From Acidothermus cellulolyticus 11B (GTDB lineage Bacteria; Actinomycetota; Actinomycetes; Acidothermales; Acidothermaceae), in assembly GCF_000015025.1 (NCBI RefSeq), contig NC_008578.1, positions 2,220,001 to 2,252,000 on the forward strand: a DNA stretch of 32,000 nt, read 5' to 3'. The stretch's first letter is position 1; the number at the start of each line of letters is the position of its first letter. Below, one piece after another: positions 10,555 to 27,023 of the stretch. Under the pieces are notes generated by a model that worked only from the letters and a program-made list of their open reading frames with translations, did no database searches and was not told where the DNA came from. Made by a program: the position numbers and the translations under genes.

Positions 10555-10630
10555 TGGAGCCGCCTCGGGGATTCGAACCCCGGACCTACGCATTACGAGT
10601 GCGTTGCTCTGCCGGCTGAGCTAAGGCGGC
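10555..10630 (-). tRNA. tRNA-Thr (anticodon CGU), CCA encoded
   Basis: The reverse complement reads GCCGCCTTAGCTCAGCCGGCAGAGCAACGCACTCGTAATGCGTAGGTCCGGGGTTCGAATCCCCGAGGCGGCTCCA. It has a 7-bp acceptor stem, a D arm GCTC/GAGC, an anticodon stem ACGCA/TGCGT with loop CTCGTAA, and a T arm CCGGG-GTTCGAATC-CCCGA/G. Confidence 0.92.
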
Positions 10631-10712: not shown

Positions 10713-11552
10713 TCACTCCTGCGGCTCGCGGCGGCCGTACCGCTCCTCGTAGCTGCGGCGCGAACCGCACACGCTCGCCTTCGGACACACGCACCGTTCT
10801 CCAGTCGCGGTGAGCTTCACGACCACGTTTCCGGCCGGGACGTTGTAGCCGACGAGCACCCCGTCGCCGTCCGGTGTGGAGACCCGGCTCCCGATCCGCG
10901 GGAGATCCGCCTTGAATTCGGCGTACAACGGATGCTCGTATTTCAGGCAGCACATGAGCCGTCCGCAGGCACCGGAAATCCGCAGCGGATTCGCCGGCAA
11001 ATCCTGGTCGCGTGCCATGCGGACCGAGACCGGCTCAAAGTCCTTGAGAAAAGTCGAGCAACACGTGTCCCGGCCGCATGGGCCGATCGCCGTCTGCACA
11101 CGAGCCTCGTCGCGGGCGCGCAATTGCCGCAGCTCCACACGTGCGTCCAATTCCGCCGAGAGAGCGCGGACCAACGCCCGGAAATCCACCCGGTGCGGCG
11201 CGCTGAAATAGAACAGGAACGTATTGTCGGCGTCCAGAAAATCAACCCCGACCAGCTTCATCGGCAGGCTGTGTTCGCGGATCAACCGGCGGGCGACCAC
11301 CCGGGCGTGCGCCCGTCGCCCGCGGTTCCGCTCGTCACGGGCAAGATCGGCGTCCGTGGCAAACCCGGCGCAGACCGGCAGACCCTCGATCTCCTCGGAC
11401 ACGTACGTCGGGGGCCAGACGCACTCGGCAACCTCGTTGCCCGCCGTTGTCGGGTACAGCACCTTGTCGCCGACCTTCGGGGCGTACGGCCCGGGGTCAA
11501 GGTAATACAGCCTCCCGTATCGGTTGAAGCTGACGGCCATCATCATGCCCAC
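10713..11552 (-). CDS. PSP1 C-terminal domain protein (RicT/YaaT-like)
   Basis: The N-terminus is AVSFNRYGRLYYLDPG..., followed by GPCGRDTCCSTFL and CGRLMCCLKYE cysteine motifs typical of PSP1/RicT. Start candidates are GTG 11552 and ATG 11546/11543/11540. Confidence 0.8.
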   Translation of the reverse strand: MGMMMAVSFNRYGRLYYLDPGPYAPKVGDKVLYPTTAGNEVAECVWPPTYVSEEIEGLPVCAGFATDADLARDERNRGRRAHARVVARRLIREHSLPMKLVGVDFLDADNTFLFYFSAPHRVDFRALVRALSAELDARVELRQLRARDEARVQTAIGPCGRDTCCSTFLKDFEPVSVRMARDQDLPANPLRISGACGRLMCCLKYEHPLYAEFKADLPRIGSRVSTPDGDGVLVGYNVPAGNVVVKLTATGERCVCPKASVCGSRRSYEERYGRREPQE

Positions 11553-11655
11553 GTCTCGACCCTAGACCGCCCGCAACGACCGACGCGGCCTGTCTGGGCG
11601 AGCGCTCCGGCGGCCGCCGGGTCAGGCAGCGACGGAGCGAGGGGCCGGGCCAGGC

Positions 11656-11694
11656 CACGACGGAGCGGGGGCCGGTCACCTCCGGCGGCGTACC
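11656..11694. repeat. Left copy of the 39-nt imperfect direct repeat flanking the island
   Basis: The sequence cacgacggagcgggggccggtcacctccggcggcgtacc matches 20220-20258 at 34 of 39 positions, and the first 16 nt are identical. A partial extra copy, cgacggagcgaggggccgg, lies at 11630-11648. Confidence 0.75.
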
Positions 11695-11920
11695 TTCTCT
11701 GTCCACATGCCTGCGGTGCGGTAGTAACGGCATTACGGAAGATCGGGAGCGTAGCGAAGGGGGTGCAGCTCCTGCGATGACCGAGCGCGCCGCTGGCGCG
11801 GCGACGAAGCACTGGTGATCACGGCATCGTCATCGTCCATCAGGAACCGCGGGTGTGCTCGTCGAGACACCTCGGCTTTTGAGCTAAGGACACGCGATTG
11901 CGAAATATACGTGGCTCACG

Positions 11921-13723
11921 CTACCCGAGAAACCCCGGAATGTCGTCGTGCCCGTTGAGCACGGCTCGATCGAGGCCACGATTGAACGCCTCACAGGAGG
12001 TCTCGGGCACCAGCAGACAGTGGTGACACGCCCCTGGAGCGGAACCACTTCCGCGAGGTCCGGGCGCATCCTCTCCGCACACCGGGTCCGTGGCGCACCA
12101 TGACGCTGCGTCGACCGCAGCTTCGAGGATGTCGCTAAGCTGGCCCGGTGTGCCCAACTCGACTAGGCCACCGAGGGTGCCGTGCAGGTCTCCGGAAGCG
12201 GTATAAACGAGAAACCCAGTGCGCTCGTCCACCGCGAATATCCGTTCCCGAAGTGATGGAAGCGGGTATCCTGCGTGCGGCGCGGCGGCCCGCATCACAA
12301 GATGGGCTAACGTGTGAGCAAGCAGCCACCTCAACCGCTGCGATTCAGGTCCTGGGGGTGCGGCCCGCGCAGCGGCCGCCAAGCGGCTGTCACCGGCCAC
12401 GCGACCCGCCCACCTTGCCACTGCGACTGGCTCAAGGAGAAGCAGTATGCCCTCGCCGAAAACCTGGTATCCCGGCAACCAGTCGTCTGGCGAGTCCTTA
12501 GCGAAATCCTTTGGACGCGGCTTTCCCCAGAGCTGCGCGTAGCCTATCTCCGGGTCCGGCGCTATTGGCTCGACACGGCAGAATCCCACACAAACCCGCG
12601 TCTCGCGCAGCCTCGGAACCAGACTGACCGCCGCAAGGCAACGGCCGAGGCGGCTGTGCTGGAATTTGCCAATATCCTGTGGTTCGACAATAAGGTCCGG
12701 CAGCCTTGCCGTAATCCGTCGTGGATGGTCAGATGACAACAGCGCATTTAATTCTCGAGTACGCAATTCTTGGACGTGTCGAGGTACACTGACCCGACCA
12801 CTCTGTATAGCCTTGAGATGGCGTGTCACCTCAGCAGCATCGGTATGGATGCCCAAGCGTTCGGCAGTCTCCACGATCTTCTCGATGACCTCAGTCCTAC
12901 GAGTTAGTCGACTCAACGTCCGCAGCGTTGCATTCTCCGTCAGAGCGTGGAGTAGAGCCGGGTTGTCTGCGTCGGCCAGCGGTATGGTGAGACTTGACAG
13001 TTGCCATGCATAGTACGCAGCCGTCGACGTTCGTTCCAGCGGGCGAGCACAATGTGTACACGTCTCCGGCTCGGAGTGTGGCAGCCATGGGCGGGCGCCG
13101 GTGCACCTGAAGGTGGTATTTGGATCGAACTGCGCGCTTCGGCTGCAACTTTCGCAATTTAGATACGGACGATCAGCTACATCGGACACACGGTAGCGCA
13201 CGTCCGGAGCGCGACAGGATGAGCCGGGTAGAGCGTGCAGCCAGCCGACCCAGTCGATGTCGTCGAGATGACCAGCTGGGCAAGCGAGTACCAGCGCAGT
13301 CTGGAATGTCGGCCACGAGCGTCGTTTAGAGCTCGGCGGCGTACACGCGTTGCACCGTCCTGGGCTAGCATCCGCAGGACTGCGGTAAATCAGCCGAAAG
13401 CACTTAGGATTCGAACATGCTTCGACAAGCGGAAAGCGCGCCGCGGGCAGTAGCCAATCGCGATCTTTCTTTGGGTTACTACCGGACGGCCACGGCATGA
13501 CGAAGCGCGCAACGCCCGTTGCCGCCTGCAGGTTCGTGTCATTGATGGTCAACTCATCAAGCACGGGGACAGATCCAGAAGGGCGCTTCGGTAACGACTT
13601 CAGCCACGTCGCTGGCGCACAGACCACCGCGCTGACCCGGTCGCGGGTCAGCAGCAGCGCGCCGGGACCAAACGGGGCGATGACATGCGCCCGCCGGAGA
13701 GGCGTCACAGAGCGACTCACCAT
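11921..13723 (-). CDS. DUF1998 domain protein, DrmB-like
   Basis: 600 aa. The N-terminus is LRRAHVIAPFGPGALLL. The N-terminal half carries Cys clusters (C103/C108/C124/C127; C190/C193/C207; C222/C225). The C-terminal block reads LLAHTLAHLVMR...SLRERIF...LVYTASGDLHGTLGGLVELG...WCATDPVC...CHHCLLVPETSCEAFNRGLDR. The start overlaps the upstream stop (ATGGTGA). Confidence 0.8.
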   Translation of the reverse strand: MVSRSVTPLRRAHVIAPFGPGALLLTRDRVSAVVCAPATWLKSLPKRPSGSVPVLDELTINDTNLQAATGVARFVMPWPSGSNPKKDRDWLLPAARFPLVEACSNPKCFRLIYRSPADASPGRCNACTPPSSKRRSWPTFQTALVLACPAGHLDDIDWVGWLHALPGSSCRAPDVRYRVSDVADRPYLNCESCSRSAQFDPNTTFRCTGARPWLPHSEPETCTHCARPLERTSTAAYYAWQLSSLTIPLADADNPALLHALTENATLRTLSRLTRRTEVIEKIVETAERLGIHTDAAEVTRHLKAIQSGRVSVPRHVQELRTRELNALLSSDHPRRITARLPDLIVEPQDIGKFQHSRLGRCLAAVSLVPRLRETRVCVGFCRVEPIAPDPEIGYAQLWGKPRPKDFAKDSPDDWLPGYQVFGEGILLLLEPVAVARWAGRVAGDSRLAAAARAAPPGPESQRLRWLLAHTLAHLVMRAAAPHAGYPLPSLRERIFAVDERTGFLVYTASGDLHGTLGGLVELGTPGQLSDILEAAVDAASWCATDPVCGEDAPGPRGSGSAPGACHHCLLVPETSCEAFNRGLDRAVLNGHDDIPGFLG

Positions 13724-16700
13724 GCATCCTCCTCATCTACGTCGGTAGCAGAGTCCTGTCGGTGCATCACGCTCCTCCTTGCGCAGGGATCAGGCGGTAG
13801 CCAGTCCTCATCGATGCTTACCGCCGCGTAGGCATCGACGTTGCGCAGTGAGGTCAGCACCGCCCAACTGGCTTTATCAGGCGGCGCAGGATCCTCCAGC
13901 GCACGCAGAAACTGCGCGCCGTGGCGTCCGGCTGTACCCCAAGGCATTTTTTCGTTGATCGCGGCCCGTAGCTCGGTCACTGCGGCTCGTGTGAGGGCTT
14001 CAATACGCTCACCGACAGCTTTACCGACAAGAGCCCCTGCCCGGTCACGGATCGCGGCCGCGGCGGCCTCGACGAGCGGAACATCCGCTTCCACGACGTC
14101 TTTAAAGTCAGTTGAACGGATCTGACGTACAACCGCGGCTATCGTACTGCGCAAGCCCCTTGCTAGCGCAGCGTCCGTAAAAGGTGTAACACTCGCAGGC
14201 TCCACTGACCCGTAGAGTCGCTCGTGCACCGAGGTAAACCGCTCATAGTGGCTCATGTCACGGCCTGTCAACGGGTTGAGAAGCACAACCACGAGACCGG
14301 GCGCATTTGTCGGATCACGGCCGACTCGGCCCGCAACCTGGATGTACTGGGCTGAGGTCTTAGGCTGCCGCACGATCGTCAATAGTCCGAGTCGGTCAAT
14401 ATCAAGGCCGACCTCAATGACGCTGGTCGCCAACGCCAGATCAACCGTACCGCGCTCCCAACGGCGACGTGCAAGGCGTTCCAGTGCCTCGCTCGCCGCG
14501 TTACTCGACGCGCTGGTAAGCTCAATGTCCTCTAGCGTACGAATCGCGAGCCTTTGCTTACCCTTCTTAACCGGCCCAGTACGGACCCCTGTCGCCGACA
14601 CCAATCGCCACGCGTAACCACGAAGGTCGGTAGCAAGAAGTGCCTTCGCGTGACCGAGGTCCCGCAAGGAGCCAAAAAACACGAGATTCGTCCAGTAGGG
14701 GTCTACGCTAGCTCCGCACTGTTCAATCGCCGCAGCTGCATGCGCGAGGCTGGCGATTACGCGCATCTGTGTCCGAGGGAAACTGTTCACACCCGTGGCA
14801 CAGACGCCGACGAACTTGCGCGGCGGTATACGGTCGTCGCGTCGGGTAAAGAAGCGGTCGTCGATACTCAGGCCCGGCGGTGGGACTAGCCGGACCTGAT
14901 CGGCTGGGCAATTGTAGAGCGCTTCCGCCTGTCGGGCGTACGCCCGGGTTGTTGCCGTCGCGGCGACGACGTGAGGCGACTCACCCTTATCGTGACAGCA
15001 GAGTGCGTGCAGAGCGGACTCATAGAGAGCCACTAAGCTACCCAGCGGCCCGGAAATCAGATGCAGCTCGTCTTGGATGATCAGAGTGGGTGAAGGTCTT
15101 ACCCGCCGGCCCTGTCGATCGATGCCAAAGATGACACGGGCGTCTTCTTTCCACGCCAGCTGGGCGAACTTGTCCACGGTCGCAATTAAAAACGCCGGTG
15201 GTTTTTTGTAGATATCTTCATCGACTTCGTAGACCGGCAGACCACGACCGCCACTGCGAGCAAGGTGAAAGGCACAAACAGGATTCTCGCACGATGCCCG
15301 CACCCGGTAACTGTTCTCCAAGTGCTGCACGTCATACCCCAACACCCGTCCCTCGACGACACGCCCGATCTCGGTGGCGCACGCTGGACACCGGGAAAGT
15401 AGAAACGGCCTGGCATCACGACGAGCTTTTGCATCCTTCACAGTTTGCTCAAGCGCCTTAAGCGCATCTTCACGCCGGTTTGGGGTGCTGGCTTGGCCAA
15501 GCCAGACACCAATCGAAAACCGATCGTTGCCAAGTAGTTCACGGTTCTTTAACCGCAACGTCTCCAGCGCGCATATGAGCGACGCAGCTCGTTGTAGCTG
15601 CTGAGCCGTAAGTAGGCGCAGCGTGTAGCGCATGAGGACGGTGGTGCCGCCTGCATTCGATTGGGCGCGGCGTCGGTACAACATTGCAAAGGCTGCAAGT
15701 CCCAAGTACGCTTCAGTCTTCCCACCGCCGGTAGGCATCCATATGACGTCCACAACACCACGGCGCGGATGCCGGGGATTAATCACCGGGCAGAGGTTCG
15801 CGAGTAAGAATGCCAACTGGAACGGTCGCCATTTAGCAGGACCCGTTGTCGGCTCGGCGCCGTCAACCTGAACCTGGTCACCGACCAAGGTGACATGTCG
15901 CGTAGCCGCCGCATAGCTGCGGCGCTGCTGCGCCATTGCCACCGAAGCCCACTCTAGGCACTGACGTGCTATGCTATTGGTTTTGACGGTTTCCCATCCT
16001 TCTTCAATGGCGTCGGCAAAGGAACGACATACCTGCACATGCTTCTGTGCAGTCGCTCCTGCCGTGCCGGTGAGACGTGCAGCCTGCTCCTCGATTGAGG
16101 TGATCCAATCACGGTAGCTGCGAATCAGCCGCTCGACGGTGGCGACAGCCGATACTTCCCAGCGTCCAAGCCCATCCATGTCGACGGCGAGTGGGCCGTC
16201 CTCATCTTCGATGTCGGGTGTCGTCCCAGAGACTGCCGCAACCGGCAAGGCTTCCGTGCGCACAATGTCCTCACCTTTGACTCGGTGCACTACGGCGTCA
16301 ACTCCGTGTCCGACGGCACGAATGGGTGAATCCCTATATAAGAGCCGCAGGCTGGCGGCCTCCGCCGTTGTATCCGAGTCTCGTTCCGGGTAATCACACA
16401 GGAGACCTTCTGGGACGGCAACTGCAAGCTGTGAAGCGAATAGCACACGCTCAGCCAAGGCTGCTCCATTCCGCGGGGTGCGGTTTGCCAGATAACAGGT
16501 GACAACTCGCTTTCCGTCGGAAGATTTCCTTGCGCGGACACCTATTTCGAGATTTAGCGGATCGACGTCGATCAGCGTCTTTCCCCAAAATTCTGGCTGC
16601 TCGACCTGTAGCGAGAACGGTACCGTTCGGTCGATGGGTACGCGGTGCCAGGCTGTGCCCGGCTGACCGTTGGCTGTTGTATACGGGAATGGTTCGTAGC

Positions 16701-17205
16701 GCGCACCTGTCACTCGCAAGGTCAGTAACGGCGTCGTGTCACGTATTACGAAGGACACACCGAGTGACGACGGACGACCAGGGCGGTCCCTCGGCAAATT
16801 TTCGAGTACAACATCATCCTCGGCCATTCCGTGGCCGGACTCGCCTCCTCGTGTCGCGAATGGTTCGGGAATGGAATTTCCTGGATCCGTATCTAGATCT
16901 TCATCGGCTTCGTCTGGTCTAACCGGCGCCTGCTCAGCGTCGAGTATGTGTTCTTCGCTAAGGTCAAGCTCCATCGGGTACAGAACACCGATGATGTATC
17001 GGGATGTCGGCGAGGCCAAGAGGATTTCCTCGCCGTCGTCGGCAACGAAGAGTCGATCCCGACCCAACCGTCCGACCATGGAATATCCGCGCTCAATGCG
17101 CTTGGCCGTAGCCCCAGGATATATACCGGACTTGTCGACAAGCGGGCCGACCAGGTCTCGGCGGAGCGCATCGATAATCGCATCGCGGGTCTGTTCTGGT
17201 GTCAT
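13717..17205 (-). CDS. Large SF2 (DExH) helicase, DrmA-like
   Basis: 1162 aa. Motif I is MPTGGGKTEAY (15706-15738), motif II DELH (15061-15072), motif III AATAT, and motif VI QYIQVAGRVGR (14317-14349). The ~480-aa N-terminal region contains SRYIIGVLYP and an acidic stretch. A CxxC...Cx4C insertion lies between motifs I and II. The ATG overlaps the upstream stop (ATGA). Confidence 0.85.
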   Translation of the reverse strand: MTPEQTRDAIIDALRRDLVGPLVDKSGIYPGATAKRIERGYSMVGRLGRDRLFVADDGEEILLASPTSRYIIGVLYPMELDLSEEHILDAEQAPVRPDEADEDLDTDPGNSIPEPFATRGGESGHGMAEDDVVLENLPRDRPGRPSSLGVSFVIRDTTPLLTLRVTGARYEPFPYTTANGQPGTAWHRVPIDRTVPFSLQVEQPEFWGKTLIDVDPLNLEIGVRARKSSDGKRVVTCYLANRTPRNGAALAERVLFASQLAVAVPEGLLCDYPERDSDTTAEAASLRLLYRDSPIRAVGHGVDAVVHRVKGEDIVRTEALPVAAVSGTTPDIEDEDGPLAVDMDGLGRWEVSAVATVERLIRSYRDWITSIEEQAARLTGTAGATAQKHVQVCRSFADAIEEGWETVKTNSIARQCLEWASVAMAQQRRSYAAATRHVTLVGDQVQVDGAEPTTGPAKWRPFQLAFLLANLCPVINPRHPRRGVVDVIWMPTGGGKTEAYLGLAAFAMLYRRRAQSNAGGTTVLMRYTLRLLTAQQLQRAASLICALETLRLKNRELLGNDRFSIGVWLGQASTPNRREDALKALEQTVKDAKARRDARPFLLSRCPACATEIGRVVEGRVLGYDVQHLENSYRVRASCENPVCAFHLARSGGRGLPVYEVDEDIYKKPPAFLIATVDKFAQLAWKEDARVIFGIDRQGRRVRPSPTLIIQDELHLISGPLGSLVALYESALHALCCHDKGESPHVVAATATTRAYARQAEALYNCPADQVRLVPPPGLSIDDRFFTRRDDRIPPRKFVGVCATGVNSFPRTQMRVIASLAHAAAAIEQCGASVDPYWTNLVFFGSLRDLGHAKALLATDLRGYAWRLVSATGVRTGPVKKGKQRLAIRTLEDIELTSASSNAASEALERLARRRWERGTVDLALATSVIEVGLDIDRLGLLTIVRQPKTSAQYIQVAGRVGRDPTNAPGLVVVLLNPLTGRDMSHYERFTSVHERLYGSVEPASVTPFTDAALARGLRSTIAAVVRQIRSTDFKDVVEADVPLVEAAAAAIRDRAGALVGKAVGERIEALTRAAVTELRAAINEKMPWGTAGRHGAQFLRALEDPAPPDKASWAVLTSLRNVDAYAAVSIDEDWLPPDPCARRSVMHRQDSATDVDEEDAW

Positions 17206-18806
17206 GCGCCCACCTTCCTCGACAACGTGGTCACACGGCAGCCATGATCGTCAAACAAAGCGCCGAGGCAGCTCAGAGGAACCGGAACCGGCTCTTCAAT
17301 GCGAGCTGTCACCATAGCGAGTAGGAGCGTACCGAGGTCGCTAACGTCCAGTACGGCCCATCCGTTGCGATCTACATCGCTCGCCCAGCGTCGATCTTTC
17401 AAGCACTCGAGCAAATCGCGCCGAATCTCCTCGCCGGCTTGCTGGCGGGCGATGCGAATCCTGACCAGGTCGTCGAAGTGTGCGGCCAGATGCTCAACTC
17501 CAATGACCTTTGTCAGGGCTTCAAACGCCGTAGAACGCCGTGGAGCGATGTAAGACTCGTCGAGGGGACTGCGAAGCAACGTACGCGCGTACTCGCCATC
17601 GCCGAGTATGTCGGTCAGCTGGCGCCACAGTGTGTCGTGACCTTCGCGGTCAAGCGCGCGACGCAGAGCTTTTCTGATTTGGTCCGGGTATCCAGATACC
17701 CGTTCGATCTTCTTAAGCGTCCAGCCAGAACGACTCAACCACTCATTGGCGCGCACGACAATCTGCATATGGGGAGCCGTAGCGCAGCGCACAGCGAGCA
17801 CGTCGCCACGTTCGATTGCTTGGACTGGGCAGGGTAATAAGATAACCGCGCCGGCCTCATCGTCTACGCTTACGACATACGGCCGTGGACCAAGTTCGTT
17901 ATGGAAGAAGATCGCGTGTCCGGACCTGAGTTGGATCTCGACCGCCATCGTCTCGCCGACGCTCGAGGGAGCCTGTAGGCGTGAGATTCGACGCACCGAA
18001 GAAGGGGTTTCTACCGCGCAAGCCCAGTCGCGCGAGCTCTCTATGGGCTGTGCTGGACCGTCGTCGCACACGGATAGTTGCGGATGCGCCTCCGAGGGGA
18101 GCAACCAGATATCATCGGCTGGTAGCGTCGGCGCATCGACCGTCAGCACAACGCGGACCTTTGTCGCTGCCGGCGCTGTCAGGAGCCACCCGTATTCCCG
18201 GAGGATAACATCCTGGCCGCGGAACGGCGAAGCAAACGCAATCGCCGGATGGCCAAGGATAATGCAGACGCGTCGTATGTCGGACCGGGTTCGCAGGTCA
18301 GACGCTATAGCGACGTCGACACAGTCAAACTCTTCGGCGGCAAGCCAGTCCTGTATGGGATCCATCCACTCCGGACGAGGCACTGCTAAGACCGCCTCGG
18401 GAGTGCCATCTAGTGCTGCACCATACTCCGACAGAAGCTCCCCGAGCGCCGATGCCACCGGTGATTGAGTAGCAAACAGTTCGCGCAAAGCCTCCGTAAG
18501 CGATGCTGCACTTTGCCACAGTGTGTGGCCGGGCCTGTCGACAAGAAATTGCTCCAAGTCTTTAATTAGGAACCCAATGCCAGTAAGCTCGTGTGCTGGC
18601 CACAAAGGGGTGCACGTGAGCACCTTTCGCGCATCGAACACTCCGCGAAGCACTTTACCAGCTATTGTGGACGTCTCGACATGGGGTCGAAATGCCTTTG
18701 CCACTTGAAGCACGCGCGCGAGTTCCGGCCAAGAGACGCGGGTCACAACGACAGCCGGTGACTCCGCGCAATGCCACATCTCGAATAATGCCTGTAGCTC
18801 GCTCAC
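17202..18806 (-). CDS. Hypothetical protein B of the island operon (no recognisable domain)
   Basis: The ORF is open over 17202..18851 (TTG at 18851). I prefer GTG 18804-18806 because it overlaps the upstream TGA (GTGA coupling); ATG 18779 is another option. The lower-GC codon usage includes tandem TTA-TTA at 17835-17840. I could find no Walker A, HxK (PLD), HNH or methyltransferase motif. Confidence 0.6.
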   Translation of the reverse strand: MSELQALFEMWHCAESPAVVVTRVSWPELARVLQVAKAFRPHVETSTIAGKVLRGVFDARKVLTCTPLWPAHELTGIGFLIKDLEQFLVDRPGHTLWQSAASLTEALRELFATQSPVASALGELLSEYGAALDGTPEAVLAVPRPEWMDPIQDWLAAEEFDCVDVAIASDLRTRSDIRRVCIILGHPAIAFASPFRGQDVILREYGWLLTAPAATKVRVVLTVDAPTLPADDIWLLPSEAHPQLSVCDDGPAQPIESSRDWACAVETPSSVRRISRLQAPSSVGETMAVEIQLRSGHAIFFHNELGPRPYVVSVDDEAGAVILLPCPVQAIERGDVLAVRCATAPHMQIVVRANEWLSRSGWTLKKIERVSGYPDQIRKALRRALDREGHDTLWRQLTDILGDGEYARTLLRSPLDESYIAPRRSTAFEALTKVIGVEHLAAHFDDLVRIRIARQQAGEEIRRDLLECLKDRRWASDVDRNGWAVLDVSDLGTLLLAMVTARIEEPVPVPLSCLGALFDDHGCRVTTLSRKVGA

Positions 18807-19861
18807 CACATATCTTCTTCGTCGCAGGTGGTTTCTGGCTCTATCCGGCAAAAGATTTCAAGTCCCGCGGTTGGCTTCAGCAATGACACGAGTGTTGGTG
18901 GCAGATTTCTTGGCGCAGGCCAACCAGAGACAGATATCACACTGGCGACTCTGGATGCTGCTGGAGAGCGCCTCGACAACAGCAGGATTATTGGCACGTT
19001 TGGCCAAACGCTCCGTGAGCTGCGGGCCCATGCCGCTGAACCAGTGAAAAGAATTAATCGTGGCTGCAGCTCGCGCGCCCAGGGTATTCTCTCCGGCTGC
19101 GGGATAGTCCGCTCCGTCAGGACGGGGTGGCGGAACCACTCCTCTAGCCTGCCGCTGTGCATACGGCCTCGCACATGTAACACGGGGCTCGCCTTCGCAA
19201 GTAGGTCAACGTCCTTAAGAAATGTAGACCATTCGCCGACAACAACCACTGGATGGGCGGCCGACGCGGATAGTCGCTGACCGGCAATTTCCGGGTTACA
19301 TTTCAGCGCCTCCGCTACTTCCCTCCGCAATTCGTCGGGAAGGCGCCATCGGGATCGCTCTGGGAATCCCTCCGGCAGCCGGTGCACACTGCCCCGATCC
19401 CCGCGGAAATGTACGCCCGCGAACATCAGTTCCTCGTCACTCATACGATCCAGCGAAGCATCGATAAATTCGCCGCTTAACCAACCGGTCACCCTCGCCC
19501 CAACTTCAAGGCGCGTATGTGGGCAATCCCGACATAATCGGTTGACGAGTGTGGCACCGAGCGTGACAACAACTCCGGCAAGTTGCGGGGTTGGAACCGT
19601 TATGATCACCCGCAAGTTCCGGGCCGATGCGGTCTCAAGACAGGTAAGTGCCTGAGCCAAGCAATGCAGGTGGCGCAGACCTGCGGGTAGTACCTCCGCT
19701 TCTGCGCGGGCTCGTCGTTGCAACACGCAGATCACCTTGTATGCCAAGCGCACACGGAGATGGCTTTCGGACGTACCATACGCGCTACGGCGGACGTGCG
19801 CACGCCTTTCGGCGGAAAATGGTGGAAGAGAGCCGATCACCGTAGCTTCGAATCGACGCAC
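18803..19861 (-). CDS. Hypothetical protein A of the island operon (no recognisable domain; start uncertain)
   Basis: 352-codon ORF from GTG 19861, with no convincing SD at any candidate start. It contains four in-frame TTA codons (19535, 19478, 19178, 19055) and ends ...CDEEDMW. It is the first gene of the coupled four-gene operon. Confidence 0.55.
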   Translation of the reverse strand: MRRFEATVIGSLPPFSAERRAHVRRSAYGTSESHLRVRLAYKVICVLQRRARAEAEVLPAGLRHLHCLAQALTCLETASARNLRVIITVPTPQLAGVVVTLGATLVNRLCRDCPHTRLEVGARVTGWLSGEFIDASLDRMSDEELMFAGVHFRGDRGSVHRLPEGFPERSRWRLPDELRREVAEALKCNPEIAGQRLSASAAHPVVVVGEWSTFLKDVDLLAKASPVLHVRGRMHSGRLEEWFRHPVLTERTIPQPERIPWARELQPRLILFTGSAAWARSSRSVWPNVPIILLLSRRSPAASRVASVISVSGWPAPRNLPPTLVSLLKPTAGLEIFCRIEPETTCDEEDMW

Positions 19862-20219
19862 GTAGCGGAGTGCCTGCTAACCCAGGAACGCTGGCCTGGA
19901 CAGGACGATTACCGCGGGACGACTCCACGCTGGAAATCTGGTCAGACGGATCACCAGAGCGTAAGCGCTAACCCGGTGGAGGATGGCACTCGGATACCTA
20001 GACGCCTCCAGCAGCCGACATCAATGCGTCGCAACGACCCATATCGCCGGAGCGTGATCGTCGAGCAGGGCAGGGTGAAGAACGCGAAGTGTATCTACAC
20101 ACGTGGCACCACATACACACCAAATCCGTGGCGAAGGTGCCATGATTCTCAACGCAGCGAAGACCGATGCCACTGCCCGAAATGTCACGAGTGGTAGCAG
20201 TTGGGTAGAGGACCGGCAA

Positions 20220-20258
20220 CACGACGGAGCGGGGGTCCGTCACCCACGCCGGCGTACC
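20220..20258. repeat. Right copy of the 39-nt imperfect direct repeat flanking the island
   Basis: The sequence cacgacggagcgggggtccgtcacccacgccggcgtacc lies 11 nt upstream of the PPOX ATG and matches 11656-11694 at 34 of 39 positions. Confidence 0.75.
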
Positions 20259-20268
20259 CTGAGAACCG

Positions 20269-20727
20269 ATGACCACGACCCGAGACGAGCCGCACGGCAA
20301 GCTGCCCGCCGATCACATCGCTTTCCTTTCCGGCCGTCGCCTCGGGCACCTCGTCACTCTTCGGCCCAACGGATGGCCGCACATCTCCAACGTCCTCTAT
20401 CACGTGGACGCCGACCAGCCGATCATCCGGATCTCGGTTACCGATGATCGGGTCAAGGTGCGCAACCTTCGACAGGACCCTCGCGCGGTGCTGCACGTCG
20501 ACGGCCCGGACGGCTGGACCTGGCTTGCTGCCGAGGGAATTGCGGAACTCTCGCCGGTTGCCGCGCAGCCCGATGACCCGACCGTCGACGAACTCGCCGA
20601 GATCTACCGCTCGATCCGCGGCGAGGATCACCCGGATTGGTCGGAATTCCGGACAGCGATGGTGGCCGAGAAACGGCTCGTCCTGCGCATCCACATTCGT
20701 CGCACATACGGCCTGCTTCGTCGGTGA
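20269..20727 (+). CDS. PPOX-class (pyridoxamine 5'-phosphate oxidase-like) probable F420-dependent enzyme
   Basis: 152 aa with ATG 20269. The sequence LSGRRLGHLVTLRPNGWPHISNVLYHVD...RISVTDDRVKVRNLRRDPRAVLHVDG...W resembles the Rv1155-type split-barrel family. GC content matches the host. Confidence 0.75.
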   Translation: MTTTRDEPHGKLPADHIAFLSGRRLGHLVTLRPNGWPHISNVLYHVDADQPIIRISVTDDRVKVRNLRQDPRAVLHVDGPDGWTWLAAEGIAELSPVAAQPDDPTVDELAEIYRSIRGEDHPDWSEFRTAMVAEKRLVLRIHIRRTYGLLRR

Positions 20728-20760: not shown

Positions 20761-22089
20761 CTACTCGGCGGCCTGCCTCACGTTGCCAGCCGCCAGGCCG
20801 CTGATCTGAATGGCCAACGCCTCGAACGCCAGCAGCGGATTGGCGTTCGCCGCCAGGGCCGCCCGGCACTCCATGATCGCGTCGATCCGGTGCAGGGTCA
20901 TTTCGGGAGTCGACCGGGCGGCAACGTCGCGGATTCGATCGAGGACGTCGGCGTTCATCACCCACGGACGGGATCGCGCGGCAACCCCGGGGACCGCCCC
21001 GGCAGCCCCGGCCCCGGAGACCCCTTCGGCAACCCCGGGGACCGCCTCGGCAACCCCGGACACCGTCTCCGCGGCCACTCCCAGTTGAACCAGCAGCACG
21101 TCGCGGAAGAACCCGGCCAAATCCATGAGGGTTCGGTCCAGCGCATCCCGCTGGGCCCGGCTGGCCCGGGATTTTTGCCGCGCCTCGAGCTCGCGGAGTG
21201 CAGCGGAACTACCTCGCAGCACGCCCGACGCGACCCGCCGCCGGTCGCCGGACGCCGTCCCACCCTCGCCGAGCGCTTCCCGCAGGGCAGCGGTCTCGGC
21301 CTGATCGAGCGCTTCCGTCTCCGTGGTCGCTTCGCTCGTCGCGGCGTCAACCAGGTCGGCGGCGACGCGCAAGCACCCGCCGAGATCGATCGGACCCGCC
21401 AACCGGGCCGCCGCCTCCAACACCGCCGATCGCCGGGCCCGCGCCCGCGCGTCGGTCGCCAGCCGCAGCGCGCGGCCGATATGCGCACCCGCCGCCCGGG
21501 CCGCCAGTTCCGCGGTGTCGGCGGCGACGCCGTTCCGCCGAATCAGCAGCTCCGCGACCGCGGCAACCGGCGGAGTGCGAAGGGTCACCAGCCGGCAGCG
21601 GGACCGGATCGTCGGCACCAGATCGTGCGGCGCGGGAACGCACAGCAACCACACCGTCCGGGGTGCCGGCTCTTCGATTGCCTTCAAGAGCACGTTCGCC
21701 GCGCCCTCGGTCAACCGGTCGGCGTCCTCGAGCACGACCACCTGCCAGCGGGCATTCGCCGGGGCCAACGCGGCGCGGGCGACCAGCTCACGCGCCTCGG
21801 CAACCCCAAGGGAGAGACCCTGCGGCCGGACGATCGTCACATCCGGGTGGGTTCCGGCGAGAACCGTCCGGCAGTCGGTGCACTCGCCGCAACCCGGCTC
21901 AGCCGCCCGGCACTGCAGGGCAGCCGCGAACGCCCGAGCGGCCACGCTCCGTCCCGAACCCGGCGGGCCGACGAACAGCCACGCATGCGTCATCCCGGCC
22001 CCCGACGCGCGGGCCGCCGCCGCGACCGCACGCAGCGTCTCGACCACCTGCTGCTGCCCGATAATTTCCCCGAAAACACCGCGGCTCAC
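20761..22089 (-). CDS. holB: DNA polymerase III subunit delta'
   Basis: The N-terminus reads VFGEIIGQQQVVETLR...HAWLFVGPPGSGRSVAARAFAAALQC...GCGECTDC (zinc module), followed by VVVLEDADRLTEGAANVLLKAIEEP and SRC. The GTG start overlaps the tmk stop (GTGA). Confidence 0.85.
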   Translation of the reverse strand: MSRGVFGEIIGQQQVVETLRAVAAAARASGAGMTHAWLFVGPPGSGRSVAARAFAAALQCRAAEPGCGECTDCRTVLAGTHPDVTIVRPQGLSLGVAEARELVARAALAPANARWQVVVLEDADRLTEGAANVLLKAIEEPAPRTVWLLCVPAPHDLVPTIRSRCRLVTLRTPPVAAVAELLIRRNGVAADTAELAARAAGAHIGRALRLATDARARARRSAVLEAAARLAGPIDLGGCLRVAADLVDAATSEATTETEALDQAETAALREALGEGGTASGDRRRVASGVLRGSSAALRELEARQKSRASRAQRDALDRTLMDLAGFFRDVLLVQLGVAAETVSGVAEAVPGVAEGVSGAGAAGAVPGVAARSRPWVMNADVLDRIRDVAARSTPEMTLHRIDAIMECRAALAANANPLLAFEALAIQISGLAAGNVRQAAE

Positions 22090-24182
22090 GGCGTCCCTCC
22101 GGCGGTTGACGGCAGCGGGTCGCGCGGAGCTCGTTTCGGGGGAAACGGCAAGACGGGCAGGATCCGCTGAACGACGAGCCGATGAATGTCCGCAGCGGAC
22201 AACCGGGCGTCGATGACAAGGTACCGTTCCGGATCGGCTTCGGCACGCTGCCGAAACACGTTCCGCACCCGCTCGTGAAAAGCCGCGTCCTCAGCTTGCA
22301 GACGATCGGGTGCGCGGTCCCGCCGTCCCGTGCGGGCCAATCCCTCATCCGGCGGAACATCCAACAGCACGGTGAGATCCGGGCGCAGACCAGACGTCGC
22401 GAACCGCGACAGCTGCTCGACGTCGCGCGGCGATAAATCCCGCCCGCCGCCCTGATAGGCAAGGGATGAATCGACGTACCGGTCGCTGATGACAATCGCA
22501 CCGCGCGCCAACGCCGGCCGAATCACCTTCGCGACGTGCTCCGCCCGATCGGCGGCGTACAGCAACGCTTCGGCGCGCGGGGAGGGAGCCGGTTCCCGGG
22601 GGTCGAGGAGAATCTCGCGAAGCCGATGACCGAGCGGCGTCCCGCCGGGTTCGCGGCTCACCACGACCTCGTATCCGCGATCGGCAAGATAGCGGGCCAG
22701 CAATTCCACCTGTGTCGATTTGCCCGCCCCTTCGCCGCCTTCGAACGCGACGAAGAAACCGGTGGCGACACCCCGCCCGGTCAACGGGTGCCAGCCGAAA
22801 ACGGCATCGATGAAATCACGCCACAACGGCACGTCGCGGTCATCCATCTGCCGATAGGCGACGAGGCCGACGACCAGTGCACCAATGCCTGCGAAGAGCA
22901 GCGTCATCGCCGAGCCGTTGACCGGGAACGTGACGTCGCCGATGCGCAGAACGTGCGTGCCGATGCCGCCAGAGAGAAACGGTCCCGCCGCAACCATCAG
23001 AAGAATGTCCACCTGCATGAGCGACTGCAACGTCGCCCAGGTGCGGCCGCGTGTGGCGTCCTCAACTTCCAAGCCGAGCAAGGTGTACCCGGTGACCCAG
23101 GCAATGCCGGCGCAACAGCCGAGCAGCAGCGCACCGAAAACAACAAGCACCAGATTATGGACCAGCGCGGTCGCCGCGAGAATCACTCCCGCTGCGGCGA
23201 TGCTCAACCCGAAGAGCCGACGCCGGGAGAATCCGCGCAGCACCCGCGGACCGGTGAACATGCCAATGGCCAACCCGAGAAAAACCGCCCCGAACAACAT
23301 GCCGTACCCGGCTCCCCCGCCGCCGAGATCCCGCACGTAAATCGTGGCGACACCGATGACGACCCCGGCCGCGCCGAACGCACCGAGCATTCCGACCGCA
23401 AGGCCGCGCACCACCGGTGTTTGGCCCATGAACCGCCACCCGTCGACGATTGACCGGAACACCGACGGATGCGTGACGACGCCGTCGGCGGTCCGCCGCC
23501 GTCCCCCGTGCGTGGAAATTTCCCGCAGGCTGAAAATCGTCGCCGCCGAGACGAGGAACGTCACCGCATCGAAATACAGGGCGAGGTCGACACGATTCGT
23601 CGTGAACAACGGAATCCAACGGGCAAGGACGCCGGTGAGCAGGCTGAGCAGTGCGAAAACCGCCGCGGCGATCGGGGCCGTGCCATAGGCGCCGAGGAGA
23701 TTCAGCGAGCCGGCGTCGCCCATGCGCTCACGAGGCACCAGATTCGGGACCGTCGCTTCCTTCGCCGGAATCCAGAACAGGCTCAACGTCTCAATGAGGA
23801 AAGTCGCGACAAAGAGCCACCAGAGCGTGTGCACGATCGGGATCGACGCGTAGAGCGCGAACCGTCCGATGTCGGCGATCACCATGGTGAGCCGGCGATC
23901 CAAGCGGTCAGCCAATGCTCCGGCCAACGGCGCGAGGGTCACCGCGGGCAACAACCGGACGAAGACCACCGTCCCGACCGAGAAATTCTGCGCCAGATAC
24001 GTGTGCCCGCTGGCCAAGCTGGCGGCCAGCGCCGTCTGGCCGAGAAAGCCCAGCCAGTCGCCGAAACTCGACACCGCGAGCGCGGTCCAGAGTTTGCGGA
24101 ACGACGGAATCCGCAGCACGCCGCGCAAATCCGACGTACCGACGGCATTCACCGCAGACCCGAGACGAGCCGTGTTGTCCAC
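22086..24182 (-). CDS. tmk: MFS-like membrane domain fused to thymidylate kinase
   Basis: 698 aa. The ~470-aa N-terminal part is polytopic and MFS-like. The C-terminal part, FFVAFEGGEGAGKSTQVELLARYL...SREPGGTPLG...DRYVDSSLAYQG, is a dTMP kinase. The same fusion and the topA-tmk-holB order are known in Streptomyces. Confidence 0.85.
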   Translation of the reverse strand: MDNTARLGSAVNAVGTSDLRGVLRIPSFRKLWTALAVSSFGDWLGFLGQTALAASLASGHTYLAQNFSVGTVVFVRLLPAVTLAPLAGALADRLDRRLTMVIADIGRFALYASIPIVHTLWWLFVATFLIETLSLFWIPAKEATVPNLVPRERMGDAGSLNLLGAYGTAPIAAAVFALLSLLTGVLARWIPLFTTNRVDLALYFDAVTFLVSAATIFSLREISTHGGRRRTADGVVTHPSVFRSIVDGWRFMGQTPVVRGLAVGMLGAFGAAGVVIGVATIYVRDLGGGGAGYGMLFGAVFLGLAIGMFTGPRVLRGFSRRRLFGLSIAAAGVILAATALVHNLVLVVFGALLLGCCAGIAWVTGYTLLGLEVEDATRGRTWATLQSLMQVDILLMVAAGPFLSGGIGTHVLRIGDVTFPVNGSAMTLLFAGIGALVVGLVAYRQMDDRDVPLWRDFIDAVFGWHPLTGRGVATGFFVAFEGGEGAGKSTQVELLARYLADRGYEVVVSREPGGTPLGHRLREILLDPREPAPSPRAEALLYAADRAEHVAKVIRPALARGAIVISDRYVDSSLAYQGGGRDLSPRDVEQLSRFATSGLRPDLTVLLDVPPDEGLARTGRRDRAPDRLQAEDAAFHERVRNVFRQRAEADPERYLVIDARLSAADIHRLVVQRILPVLPFPPKRAPRDPLPSTAGGTP

Positions 24183-24224: not shown

Positions 24225-27023
24225 CTACTCCGAACGGACGGCGGCCCGGCGCCCCCGTCGTGGACGCGGCGTCGTGGGTCCACGACTGCGCCGATCCGCG
24301 AGCAACTCGCTGGCACGTTCCAGGGTCACGTTCTCCAGGGTGTCACCATGGCGGAGCGTTGCGTTGGTCTCGCCGTCCGTCACGTAGGGACCATACCGCC
24401 CGGTCCGCGCCGTGACGGTCCGTCCGGTCGCGGGGTCCACCCCCAGCTCCCGGACCTGCGCGGCCGCGGCCGGCAGACGACGGCCGCGCTGCTTCGGCTG
24501 CGCCAGCAGCTGCAGCGCCTCGTCAAGGGTGAGGGTGAAGAGCTCCTCCTCTGACCCCAGCGACCGGGTCTCGGCGCCCTTCTTCACGAACGGACCGAAC
24601 CGCCCGTTGCTCACGATCACCTGCTCGCCGTCGACCTCGCCAAGCACCCGCGGCAGGCTGAGCAGTTTCAGCGCATCGTCCAGGGTGATCGATTCAACGG
24701 TCATCGAGGAGAGCAGGGACGCCGTCCGCGGCTTGCCCTTGGCGCCCTCGGGCAGGACCTCGGTGACGTACGGCCCATACCGGCCGACCCGAGCGACGAT
24801 GGTGTGACCCGTCGCCGGGTCGACGCCAAGTTCCCGCTCGCCGGTCGGCTGTTCCAGCAACCGGGTGGCGAACTCGACCGTGACCTCGTCGGGTGCCGTG
24901 CCCGGCGGAAGGGACGCCCGCTGCCCGTCCCGTTCGACGTACGTGCCGTAACGGCCGACCCGGACGACGATCCCGGACTCACCGAGCGGGAAGGTGCTGA
25001 TGTCCCGGGCGTCGATCTCCGCCAACCGTTCGGTGACCAGCTGCTTGAGCCCGGCGGCACTGCCGCCGTCGGTCGGTGAACCGAAGTAGAACCGCGTCAA
25101 CCACTCCAGGCGGTGCGCCTCGCCGTTGGCGATCCGGTCAAGGTTCTCCTCCATTTCGGCGGTGAAGTCGTAGTCGACGAGGTTGCCGAAGTGCTTCTCC
25201 AACAGCCGCACCACGGCAAAGGCGAGGAACGTCGGCACCAACGCCTGACCGCGTTTGAAGACGTAATCGCGCTCGATGATGGTGCTCACGATGCTGGCGA
25301 AGGTGGACGGCCGACCGATGCCGCGCTCCTCCAACGCCCGGATGAGGCTGGCCTCGGTGTACCGCGGCGGCGGTGTCGTCGTGTGCTCCGCCGGAGTGAG
25401 CGCCGCGACGGGCACCGTCTCACCCTCGGTGAGGTCGGGGAGGGTGCGGCCCGAGCCGGAGTCGTCCTCCTCGTCGCTGCTCTCCACGTACACCCGGAGG
25501 AACCCGGGTTGCGTGATCACCGTTCCGGTGGCGGCGAATACCGCCTCCCGGCCGGCGTCCGTCACGGCGGCGATCCGGATGCTCACCGTGTATCCGGTGG
25601 CATCGATCATCTGGGAGGCTAGGGTGCGCTGCCAGATCAATTCGTAGAGCCGCAATTCGTCACCGGAGAGCTCCCCGGCCAGGTCAGCCGGCGTCCGGAA
25701 CCGGTCGCCCGCCGGGCGGATCGCCTCATGCGCCTCCTGGGCGTTCTTGACCTTCTTCTCGTAGCGCCGCGGCGCAGCCGGGAGCAGCTGGTCACCGTAC
25801 AACTCGGCGATCTGCGCTCGGGCCGCAGCAAGCGCCGTCTCGGAGAGCGTGGTGGAGTCGGTCCGCATGTAGGTGATGTAGCCGGCTTCGTACAGCCGCT
25901 GCGCAATCCGCATCGTGGCCTGCGAGCTGAGGCCGAGTTTGCGGCTCGCCTCCTGCTGGAGGGTGCTGGTGATGAACGGTGCAGCCGGCGCGCGCCGGTA
26001 CGGCTTGCGCTCAACGCTCCGGACGACGAACTCCGCGCCGTCCAAGCCGCGCACCAGCCGCTGCGCGTCGGCTTCCCCGAGATGGACGACGTCCGGGTTC
26101 TTCAACCGGCCCTGGGCGTCGAAGTCCCGGCCGACCGCCACCCGCTTGCCGTCAATCGCCACGAGGGTGGCGGAGAACGACGGGGTGGTCGCAATCTCGG
26201 CGATGACATCCCAGTACGCAGCCGGCCGGAACGCGATCCGCTCCCGCTCCCGCTCGACGACCATGCGGGTGGCGACGCTCTGCACCCGGCCGGCGGAGAG
26301 CGCCGGCATGACCTTCTTCCACAACACCGGGCTGATCTCGTAGCCGTACAGCCGGTCGAGGATGCGGCGGGTCTCTTGTGCGTCCACCAGCGCTTGGTCA
26401 ATTTCCCGTGGATTGCGGGCCGCCTCCTCGATCGCCTGGCGGGTGATCTCGTGGAAGACCATCCGGCGGACCGGCACGCGGGGCTTCAGCACCTCGACGA
26501 GGTGCCAGGCAATGGCCTCTCCTTCGCGATCCTCATCTGTTGCGAGATAGAGCTCCTCGGCCTGGGCCAGCGCCTGCTTCAGCTTGGTGACCTGTTTGCG
26601 CTTGTCAGCGGCGACGACGTACAGCGGTTCGAAATTCCGGTCGACGTTGACCCCCAGCCGGGCCCAGGGCTCTTTCTTATATTTCTCGGGAATCTCCGCC
26701 GCGGACGCCGGCAAGTCCCGGATGTGGCCGACGCTGGATTCCACGACGTAGCCGGGTCCGAGGAAGCCGGCGATCGTCCGCGCCTTGGCCGGCGACTCGA
26801 CGATCACCAGGCGGGTGCCGCCCTGCGAGGCCGGCCCTCGGCGAGTCCCGGACGCCGCCCGTGTCGCGCCGTCGGCCGGCGTGCCTGAGCGTCGTCCGCT
26901 CCGCGCTGCTGTCGTTGCCACTGCTTGGTCGTTCTCCGTTTCCGGTCCGGACGGCTTCGACGTCCGGGCTGTTGAGGTTCCGCCGGACACGGTAACCGGT
27001 CCGGGTGCCCGGCTGCGGCGCAC
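24225..27023 (-). CDS. topA: DNA topoisomerase I (start uncertain; about 70 extra N-terminal codons in the longest ORF)
   Basis: The TOPRIM domain reads LVIVESPAKARTIAGFLG...ATDEDREGEAIAWH, and the active-site region reads GYITYMRTDS. The long basic C-terminal domain has repeated GRYGPYV units. An alternative GTG start lies at 26921. Confidence 0.9.
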   Translation of the reverse strand: MRRSRAPGPVTVSGGTSTARTSKPSGPETENDQAVATTAARSGRRSGTPADGATRAASGTRRGPASQGGTRLVIVESPAKARTIAGFLGPGYVVESSVGHIRDLPASAAEIPEKYKKEPWARLGVNVDRNFEPLYVVAADKRKQVTKLKQALAQAEELYLATDEDREGEAIAWHLVEVLKPRVPVRRMVFHEITRQAIEEAARNPREIDQALVDAQETRRILDRLYGYEISPVLWKKVMPALSAGRVQSVATRMVVERERERIAFRPAAYWDVIAEIATTPSFSATLVAIDGKRVAVGRDFDAQGRLKNPDVVHLGEADAQRLVRGLDGAEFVVRSVERKPYRRAPAAPFITSTLQQEASRKLGLSSQATMRIAQRLYEAGYITYMRTDSTTLSETALAAARAQIAELYGDQLLPAAPRRYEKKVKNAQEAHEAIRPAGDRFRTPADLAGELSGDELRLYELIWQRTLASQMIDATGYTVSIRIAAVTDAGREAVFAATGTVITQPGFLRVYVESSDEEDDSGSGRTLPDLTEGETVPVAALTPAEHTTTPPPRYTEASLIRALEERGIGRPSTFASIVSTIIERDYVFKRGQALVPTFLAFAVVRLLEKHFGNLVDYDFTAEMEENLDRIANGEAHRLEWLTRFYFGSPTDGGSAAGLKQLVTERLAEIDARDISTFPLGESGIVVRVGRYGTYVERDGQRASLPPGTAPDEVTVEFATRLLEQPTGERELGVDPATGHTIVARVGRYGPYVTEVLPEGAKGKPRTASLLSSMTVESITLDDALKLLSLPRVLGEVDGEQVIVSNGRFGPFVKKGAETRSLGSEEELFTLTLDEALQLLAQPKQRGRRLPAAAAQVRELGVDPATGRTVTARTGRYGPYVTDGETNATLRHGDTLENVTLERASELLADRRSRGPTTPRPRRGRRAAVRSE

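Follow-up and report, generated by a model that had tools for sequence, protein, structure and literature searches.

What does a helicase of superfamily 2 (SF2), encoded beside a DUF1998 protein and two proteins of obscure descent, do in a small island of the Acidothermus cellulolyticus 11B chromosome? The island lies within a stretch of 32,000 nucleotides (contig NC_008578.1, positions 2,220,001 to 2,252,000), referred to here as the window, and all positions below are those of the window. An earlier note, made from the sequence alone, had favoured an undescribed, methylation-independent defence system built on two novel proteins, and had listed a highly diverged DISARM variant and a DNA-repair module as alternatives. 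Based on the present analysis, the locus is a new compact variant of class-2-like DISARM and not a new kind of system. The claim of an undescribed system falls, as the cassette holds the DISARM core and one of the two supposedly novel proteins is DrmE-like, and what stands in its place is the alternative of a diverged DISARM variant, one that belongs to the DrmE (class 2) lineage. Taken as a whole, the island is probably a horizontally acquired, self-contained anti-phage and anti-plasmid cassette of the DISARM family, with a short DrmE that is preceded by an additional gene of ~310 amino acids (aa), and with both methyltransferase and nuclease lost.

The cassette consists of four genes, given here in their order along the minus strand:

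Gene A (Acel_1968), 18803..19726, minus strand, ~307 aa from the GTG at 19726 (the maximal open reading frame, ORF, extends to 19861 and encodes 352 aa), first in the cassette
Gene B (Acel_1967), 17202..18806, minus strand, 534 aa, GTG start overlapping the stop of A, predicted short DrmE-family protein
Gene C (Acel_1966), 13717..17205, minus strand, 1162 aa, predicted DrmA SF2 helicase
Gene D (Acel_1965), 11921..13723, minus strand, 600 aa, predicted DrmB (OB-CON-DUF1998) with a C-terminal CHHC...C zinc cluster

The tags of D and A, and the accession ABK53738.1 for C, come from exact look-up, and those of B and C follow from position. The four minus-strand ORFs lie where the earlier note had put them (A 18803-19861, B 17202-18851, C 13717-17205, D 11921-13723), and the junctions, read directly, agree with it as well. 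At the A/B junction the sequence is ...GAT ATG TGG TGA, with the GTG of B inside TGGTGA, and from this GTG in the overlap B starts at 18806, within its maximal ORF of 17202-18851; the B/C junction is ATGA and the C/D junction ATGGTGA. Stop and start overlap by 4, 4 and 7 nt at A/B, B/C and C/D, that is at all three junctions, which makes this a single operon of four translationally coupled genes. A scan for promoters and terminators within the operon gave no internal signal above chance.

Do C and D form the DISARM core? The motifs noticed earlier are present in the translations (MPTGGGKT as motif I, DELH as motif II, TAT and QYIQVAGRVGR in C; FGPGALL, HTLAHLVMR, CHHC and NRGLDR in D), and the profile comparisons go further. 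C matches the PADLOC model of DrmA with an E-value (E) of 1.5e-177 and that of DpdJ weakly (1e-13), and a profile made of C and six orthologues finds Serratia DrmA (PDB 7S9V) at E 1.3e-183, the single sequence doing so at 2.5e-131. Judged by these matches C is a member of the DrmA family, not an equivalog by the NCBIfam cut-off. D scores 310 bits on the NCBIfam family DrmB_fam, above the cut-off of 240, and matches PADLOC DrmB at E 6.5e-55 and, as a profile, chain B (DrmB) of 7S9V at E 2.1e-59. It is encoded directly after drmA as a separate gene, with the 7-nt overlap given above. The PADLOC, NCBIfam and 7S9V matches together identify C and D as a true DrmA and DrmB of a diverged branch, where the earlier note had called them DrmA-like and DrmB-like. 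In addition, an acidic, disordered low-complexity stretch of C (~residues 81-140) aligns opposite residues ~180-230 of 7S9V, and the autoinhibitory trigger loop of Serratia DrmA comprises residues 176-232 (PMC9142583).

Gene B is where the earlier proposal changes most. Searched against Pfam, PADLOC and NCBIfam it has no match, and alone it gives nothing on NF038316 or NF038323 at E<0.01. Its close family numbers 25 proteins in 5.8 billion, all of them actinobacterial or metagenomic, and a profile search of 1.84 billion representatives returned 475 cluster representatives, mostly of 500-545 aa. Among 80 loci fetched around DrmA relatives, the B profile finds proteins of ~870 aa whose genes immediately precede drmA, and covers their C-terminal part; these proteins belong to the NCBIfam 'DrmE family protein' NF038316 with 193-438 bits (cut-off 80). 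Alignment of the B family with 18 of these long DrmE_fam proteins by hhalign gave 98.6% probability and E 1.3e-15 over 487 columns, spanning residues 14-522 of B and 346-858 of 870 in DrmE, and a profile from the 18 long proteins alone matches B-family ORFs collinearly. As an independent check, DrmE_fam (NF038316) was the sole curated NCBIfam family repeatedly matched by diverse B-like proteins (4/26, best E 1.3e-19). The signature common to B and DrmE is RxAHxxAG, conserved in B as RxAHQxAGExIR; B shows no catalytic motifs. On this sequence evidence B is best read as a short member of the DrmE family that corresponds to the C-terminal ~520 residues of the long (~870 aa) DrmE. For the N-terminal ~345 residues of DrmE no counterpart was detected, A having been tried without a match. 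The earlier note had held that its proposal would fail if A or B proved to be a diverged DrmE; the end-to-end alignment of the B family with the C-terminal ~520 residues of DrmE-family proteins means that this is the case for B, which is not novel.

The PADLOC models for DrmE and for candidate systems match neither A, nor B, nor ten distant B-like proteins, nor the NCBIfam-validated long DrmE proteins; since they miss validated DrmE proteins, their silence on B carries no information about DrmE membership. An AlphaFold2 (AF2) model of B reached a predicted local distance difference test score (pLDDT) of 80, and Foldseek returned weak matches of the model among solved and viral structures, the best being SF2 helicase folds (such as MDA5, XPF, RIG-I, Hef and phage SNF2 helicases) with a probability of at most 0.98, a template-modelling (TM) score of ~0.2 and E of at least 0.003. 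Judging from this model, B may contain a RecA-like domain.

Which other DISARM genes accompany this core? When the four proteins, together with all ORFs of 60 aa or more in the six frames of 11601-20300, were scanned with regular expressions, neither HxKxxxxD nor (D/N/S)PP(Y/F/W) nor the PCQ of C5 methylases turned up. Pfam and PADLOC detected no PLD nuclease (DrmC) or methylase domain in the island, which has no NERD nuclease gene either, and no SNF2 domain or motif, the mark of DrmD, was found there. For methyltransferase, PLD nuclease and SNF2 protein the absences listed in the earlier note are thereby confirmed in the island. No methylase was found among the flanking window ORFs scanned either. 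Around the related loci the picture is the same: no Pfam match to a methylase was recorded up to 10 kb away in L001-L007, nor in those neighbours of L008 that were tested, no ORF with an HKD motif was flagged beside any of these eight loci (L001-L008), and nine close cassettes have no recognisable methylase, PLD or NERD-helicase within 7-10 kb. With this gene content, the cassette would be methylation-independent. The PADLOC rules for DISARM ask for DrmA, B, C, D and MI (type I) or DrmA, B, C, E and MII (type II) (PMC9252829), and among the island proteins only the hidden Markov models of DrmA and DrmB find a match. Because neither a methylase nor DrmC is there, the cassette is not DISARM class 1 or 2 as defined; by the homology of its DrmA, DrmB and DrmE-family genes it is nevertheless a clear member of the DISARM family. 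No paper on the Acel locus tags, on a 'class 3/III DISARM' or on a methylase-less DISARM class was found in the literature searched.

Gene A has a different standing. GenBank gives Acel_1968 as 352 aa, and a RefSeq WP_ accession for it is not listed; as 13 homologues of ~308 aa align from the GTG at 19726, the protein is likely to have 307 residues and not 352. It has no match in Pfam, PADLOC, NCBIfam or the PDB sequences, and an AF2 model from 12 sequences was unusable (pLDDT 45), its Foldseek search against the PDB coming back empty. Of the 'two novel proteins' of the earlier note, A therefore keeps this description, no relative having been found, and B loses it. The A family has an invariant CxxCxH (residues 65-70 of the 307-aa protein) and a near-invariant cysteine (143), encoded at ~19300-19535. 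This pattern suggests a small zinc-binding site, which would resemble the zinc-binding modules that are numerous in defensive YprA-family systems.

By size and position A was a candidate for the N-terminal part of DrmE. Three A alignments (13, 19 and 21 sequences) were compared by hhalign with whole DrmE and with DrmE residues 1-345, and the result was negative (0.1-0.3% probability). A degenerate RecA1/helicase domain, considered for a motif Ia-like 'VTVPTxxLAG', was also rejected, since profile comparisons of A with DrmA, DrmB, B and the NERD-helicase showed no similarity. Outside the family, the A profile has its top match among 8,968 ORFs in the gene at the same position in locus L028, with E moving from 0.12 to 0.029 as the profile grew; this is suggestive and lies below significance.

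All A-family proteins, including members in L088, L090, L091 and L092, have an acidic C-terminal tail whose last residue is aromatic or hydrophobic (...DEEDxW, ...DEDAF, ...EEDEWLF, ...DDEELI). The DrmA of the same clade ends in ...EEDAW (13717-13745; the tail of A is encoded at 18803-18830), and the tail codons of A and C (GAAGAAGAT, GAGGAGGAT) form Shine-Dalgarno-like purine runs ahead of the overlapping next start. Such a tail could be an interaction motif resembling the C-terminus of SSB, a constraint from ribosome binding, or both.

Is the four-gene layout peculiar to Acidothermus? The order A-B-DrmA-DrmB, with overlapping or abutting genes, was found in Mycobacterium sp. SM1, M. parmense (two assemblies) and M. 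paraense, and also in Cellulomonas sp. WB94, a Blastococcus sp. and two metagenome contigs, and the flanks differ in each of these close cassettes. Every distant B subfamily sampled has the same layout (L088, L089, L090, L091, L092 and the P0148 contig); a metagenome scan with the diverse B alignment returned one locus. A homologues sit directly upstream of B-like genes in all loci, and DrmA and DrmB are there in every locus recovered, so the linkage of A and B to a helicase and a DUF1998 protein, on which the earlier note had made its proposal depend, is conserved. Several of the relatives also lie among defence genes, the other context that the note had asked about: their neighbours include RES-Xre, ThsB-TIR with caspase, Hypoth_Ymh, Abi_2, Schlafen-AlbA, an McrBC fragment, a NERD-kinase, recombinases and an integrase, surroundings that are typical of defence islands and mobile elements. 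Across the same loci, identity is 34-55% for A and 33-53% for B, compared with 52-63% for C and 53-72% for D. Judged from these identities, the faster divergence of A and B fits a role in specificity or in an arms race.

Where these cassettes belong among DISARM-like operons was assessed from a coarse map of the genes at the 80 DrmA loci and from a neighbour-joining DrmA tree. Class-1-type operons (SNF2, N6 methylase, long DrmA, DrmB, HKD protein) make up one large separate group. The A-B cassettes form one clade, and L029 (Micrococcales) and L028 (Verrucomicrobia) branch just outside it; both have, in this order, a gene of ~330-350 aa, a short DrmE (~520-540 aa), a NERD/UvrD-like helicase, DrmA and DrmB, with a C5 methylase directly after drmB in L028 and an N6/N4 methylase ~1.5 kb upstream, on the opposite strand, in L029. 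The next relatives, whose DrmA is 33-39% identical to that of the cassette, have the order (C5 methylase)-long DrmE-NERD/UvrD-like helicase-DrmA-DrmB. These long-DrmE and L028/L029 operons contain the closest relatives of DrmA, DrmB and DrmE, and L028 and L029 show the same two-gene split before DrmA, whereas the Acidothermus/Mycobacterium clade is without the NERD-nuclease/SF1-helicase fusion and without a methylase at the locus. On the simplest reading of the tree and the gene map, this clade would descend from a split-DrmE DISARM-like ancestor and have lost the NERD-helicase and the methylase.

The long-DrmE operon type is widespread in its own right (L009-L027, L037, L040, L079 and L083), with a NERD/UvrD-like helicase of ~590 aa where canonical class 2 has no gene, and it is usually without the PLD protein DrmC. 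No name for these operons was found in the literature searched; 'many uncharacterized DISARM-like ... classes' are mentioned, without more, by Bell et al. (bioRxiv 10.1101/2025.09.15.676423).

A comparison with named systems points the same way. Class 2 DISARM consists of DrmE-DrmA-DrmB-DrmC-DrmMII (Ofir et al. 2018 as summarised in PMC9142583, PMC9252829 and bioRxiv 10.1101/2021.12.28.474362), and the Acidothermus cassette shares with it DrmA, a separate DrmB (DUF1998) and, by the reading of B given above, a DrmE-family gene directly upstream of drmA on the same strand. It differs from class 2 by the lack of the C5 methylase (DrmMII) and of the PLD nuclease (DrmC), by a DrmE homologue that corresponds to the C-terminal ~520 residues alone and is preceded by the unrelated-looking ~307-aa gene A, and by a DrmA that has no more than 31-39% identity to its nearest relatives outside the clade and lies under the NCBIfam equivalog cut-off. 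With class 1 (DrmD-DrmMI-DrmA-DrmB-DrmC, known from Serratia; 7S9V and 7S9W) it has in common a homologous DrmA-DrmB core and the acidic insertion at the position of the Serratia trigger loop, but there is no SNF2 DrmD, N6 methylase or PLD protein, and DrmA is short (1162 versus ~1325 aa). ARMADA, Druantia, Dpd, BRIGADE and TALON resemble the cassette in that their central motor is a helicase of the YprA family joined to an OB-CON-DUF1998 module. Their helicase-DUF1998 fusion, their BrxA-like, MarR-like and nuclease domains and their partners (BrxHII/PglX, DruH, deazaguanine genes) are all absent here, and ARMADA, BRIGADE and TALON, along with an McrBC-linked DISARM-like cassette, were ruled out by architecture. 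MrfA/MrfB (YprA/YprB) likewise combine an SF2 helicase with a DUF1998 zinc module; unlike the cassette, they belong to a repair branch, with a fused architecture, an exonuclease partner and no DrmE-like gene.

How did the cassette come to lie where it does? The island measures ~8.5 kb and has a GC content of 58-62%, compared with 66-70% in the flanks. The elements at its edges are as follows:

39-nt direct repeat, right-hand copy, 11656..11694, plus strand, downstream of D and adjoining the PSP1 gene
39-nt direct repeat, left-hand copy, 20220..20258, plus strand, upstream of A and just before the PNPOx-like gene (start 20269)
Non-coding leader of A, 19727..20219, minus strand, ~490 nt that separate the start of A from the island border

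The repeat is imperfect and direct, with 34/39 positions identical, and it bounds the island at both borders, as the earlier note had described. It has two copies in the 32-kb window, both at the borders, where none would be expected by chance. Insertion took place between the PSP1 and PNPOx-like genes, within the housekeeping topA-tmk-holB...tRNA-Thr block. The low GC, the border repeats unique to this site and the position inside a housekeeping block suggest that the island was acquired horizontally. The island, which separates PSP1 from the divergently oriented PNPOx-like gene, contains no integrase or transposase. At 11616-11671 there is another, partial tandem copy of the border repeat. 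The promoter of the operon presumably lies in the leader; 19727-20219 shows no consensus sigma-70 site, and no leader or regulatory element upstream of A is conserved across the cassettes, likeness being seen only between closely related Mycobacterium loci.

What might such a cassette do? In class 2 DISARM, defence is abolished by deletion of drmA, drmB or drmE, in the class 1 system of Serratia no autoimmunity occurs without the methylases, and drmA and drmB account for most of the protection (bioRxiv 10.1101/2021.12.28.474362). DrmC is reported to be non-essential and is often missing, and in DrmAB the trigger loop autoinhibits and a 5' overhang of single-stranded DNA (ssDNA) activates, which amounts to discrimination by DNA structure (PMC9142583). 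As the cassette keeps the essential class 2 trio, with DrmE shortened, and adds A, a coupled A-B-DrmA-DrmB machine can be proposed. All four proteins would be made from one translationally coupled transcript, and C and D would form a heterodimeric ssDNA translocase as in the Serratia structure. The acidic insertion resembling a trigger loop would keep DrmA-DrmB off the chromosome until exposed 5' single-stranded ends of injected, replicating or conjugating DNA displace it and switch on ATP-driven translocation. B, as a DrmE-like protein, and A could together be an accessory module, indispensable for coupling or targeting the translocase. Self would be told from non-self by DNA structure, with no methyl mark of the cassette's own, and interference could be the work of a translocase that strips or stalls replication, or else of a nuclease of the host, recruited in trans. 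In its fullest form this proposal, which we hold tentatively and judge less likely than not, takes the four genes alone as a complete minimal DISARM that distinguishes self from foreign DNA by exposed 5' ssDNA, with no epigenetic mark and no dedicated nuclease, and takes A, with its CxxCxH and acidic SSB-like tail, as a new sensor or adaptor in place of the N-terminal part of DrmE.

A number of points weigh against reading the island as a self-contained DISARM-family cassette. On NCBIfam DISARM_DrmAS, C reaches 770 bits where an equivalog would need 950, and the long DrmE_fam proteins match the canonical DrmE equivalog NF038323 weakly (E ~1e-5), which leaves B two steps from the DrmE of the DISARM literature. 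Between A and the N-terminal part of DrmE there is no detectable similarity. The correspondence of C 81-140 to the trigger loop is drawn from alignment position and amino-acid composition, the defence role is argued from homology and neighbourhood, and the negative result on methylases and nucleases for Acidothermus is confined to the 32-kb window. The flanks of the Acidothermus island are housekeeping and not defence genes. Lastly, the distant cassettes L090 and L091, both with long flanks, adjoin a type I HsdM, with HsdS also in L090, and in L091 a 358-aa NERD-domain protein follows drmB after 51 nt (these restriction-modification (R-M) and NERD neighbours lie at 10027-13446 in L090 and at 502-2478 and 11624-12700 in L091). 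The HsdM and NERD genes may be functionally associated with the cassettes or may merely cluster with them in defence islands, and possibly the wider family depends in part on neighbouring R-M or nuclease genes. A rival view is that the Acidothermus cassette, too, is a translocase/DrmE module which relies on an unlinked or neighbouring R-M methyltransferase, and perhaps nuclease, in other words a dispersed class 2 DISARM. Association with R-M genes belongs to the definition of DISARM, both outgroups (L028 and L029) have a methylase at the locus, a C5 methylase is nearly always found with the long-DrmE relatives, and DrmAB has been proposed to recruit host PLD nucleases in trans (Bravo et al., PMC9142583); the HsdM neighbours in L090 and L091, the HsdS of one and the adjacent NERD protein of the other would fit as well. 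Yet the nine close cassettes come from four genera and unrelated contexts and have no methylase within 7-10 kb, the mobile unit, judged by the repeat-bounded island, holds just four genes, and class 1 tolerates the loss of both methylases without autoimmunity (bioRxiv 10.1101/2021.12.28.474362). We consider a dispersed system of this kind unlikely.

The housekeeping surroundings bear on a further alternative, that of a housekeeping or stress DNA-repair module like MrfA/MrfB (YprA/YprB) and not an immune system. A genuine repair branch does exist among the YprA-family helicases (Bell et al., bioRxiv 10.1101/2025.09.15.676423), the island lies among the replication- and repair-related genes topA, tmk and holB, and the cassette has neither nuclease nor methylase. 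However, a helicase and a DUF1998 protein on separate genes are a hallmark of DISARM (same source), C and D match the solved DISARM DrmA and DrmB far better than any repair helicase, and a DrmE-family gene belongs to the cassette. Low GC, repeat borders and a patchy occurrence across genera, together with relatives among toxin-antitoxin, Abi, TIR and McrBC genes, do not fit repair either, and we regard it as very unlikely. A decaying, non-functional DISARM remnant, left after the loss of methylase and nuclease, appears just as improbable or slightly more so: two component classes that PADLOC requires for a DISARM call are indeed absent, and the DrmA called in one of the M. parmense assemblies (L002) has a reduced length of 967 aa, but the four ORFs are intact, with overlaps and helicase and zinc motifs kept across loci whose proteins are 33-72% identical. 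As divergence of this extent would have destroyed unselected reading frames, decay is not expected, and the four-gene layout recurs in several deeply separated subfamilies.

To our knowledge the mechanism of DISARM is not resolved, and we know of no function or structure for DrmE. A compact lineage stripped of methylase and nuclease would offer a clean minimal system for reconstituting the DrmA-DrmB-DrmE machinery, and one suited to asking what it is in DISARM that stops a phage. It would also help to define the conserved core of DrmE as the C-terminal ~520 residues with RxAHxxAG. If it is true that four genes suffice, the cassette would allow a direct test of DISARM interference with DrmC dispensable, and of the role of DrmE. 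Its value lies in the combination of a naturally minimal DISARM with one always-linked protein, A, that has no known relatives. The lineage spans the thermophilic Acidothermus, Mycobacterium, Cellulomonas and Blastococcus, and the wider family amounts to hundreds of sequence clusters. As current defence-finding rules demand a methylase and DrmC, cassettes of this class are likely to go uncounted. The databases label D 'hypothetical / DUF1998 domain-containing', C 'helicase domain protein' and A 'hypothetical', B is 100% identical to a hypothetical protein of A. cellulolyticus, and none of the four is labelled DISARM, which leaves a gap in annotation where Acidothermus genes of this family stand as 'hypothetical', 'DUF1998 domain-containing' or 'helicase-related'.

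The genes that flank the island are, from the side of A outward and then on the side of D:

PNPOx-like gene, 20269-20727, plus strand
holB, 20761-22089
tmk-MFS fusion, 22086-24182, minus strand, thymidylate kinase with an N-terminal MFS-transporter-like region in a single 698-aa ORF
topA, 24225-27023
PSP1 gene, 10713-11552, beyond the D end of the island
tRNA-Thr, 10555-10630

Within the holB ORF, the region 20979-21080 contains four tandem copies of a 21/27-nt G+C-rich unit (CGGCAACCCCGGGGACCGCC...), which are in frame and would give rise to a short peptide repeat.

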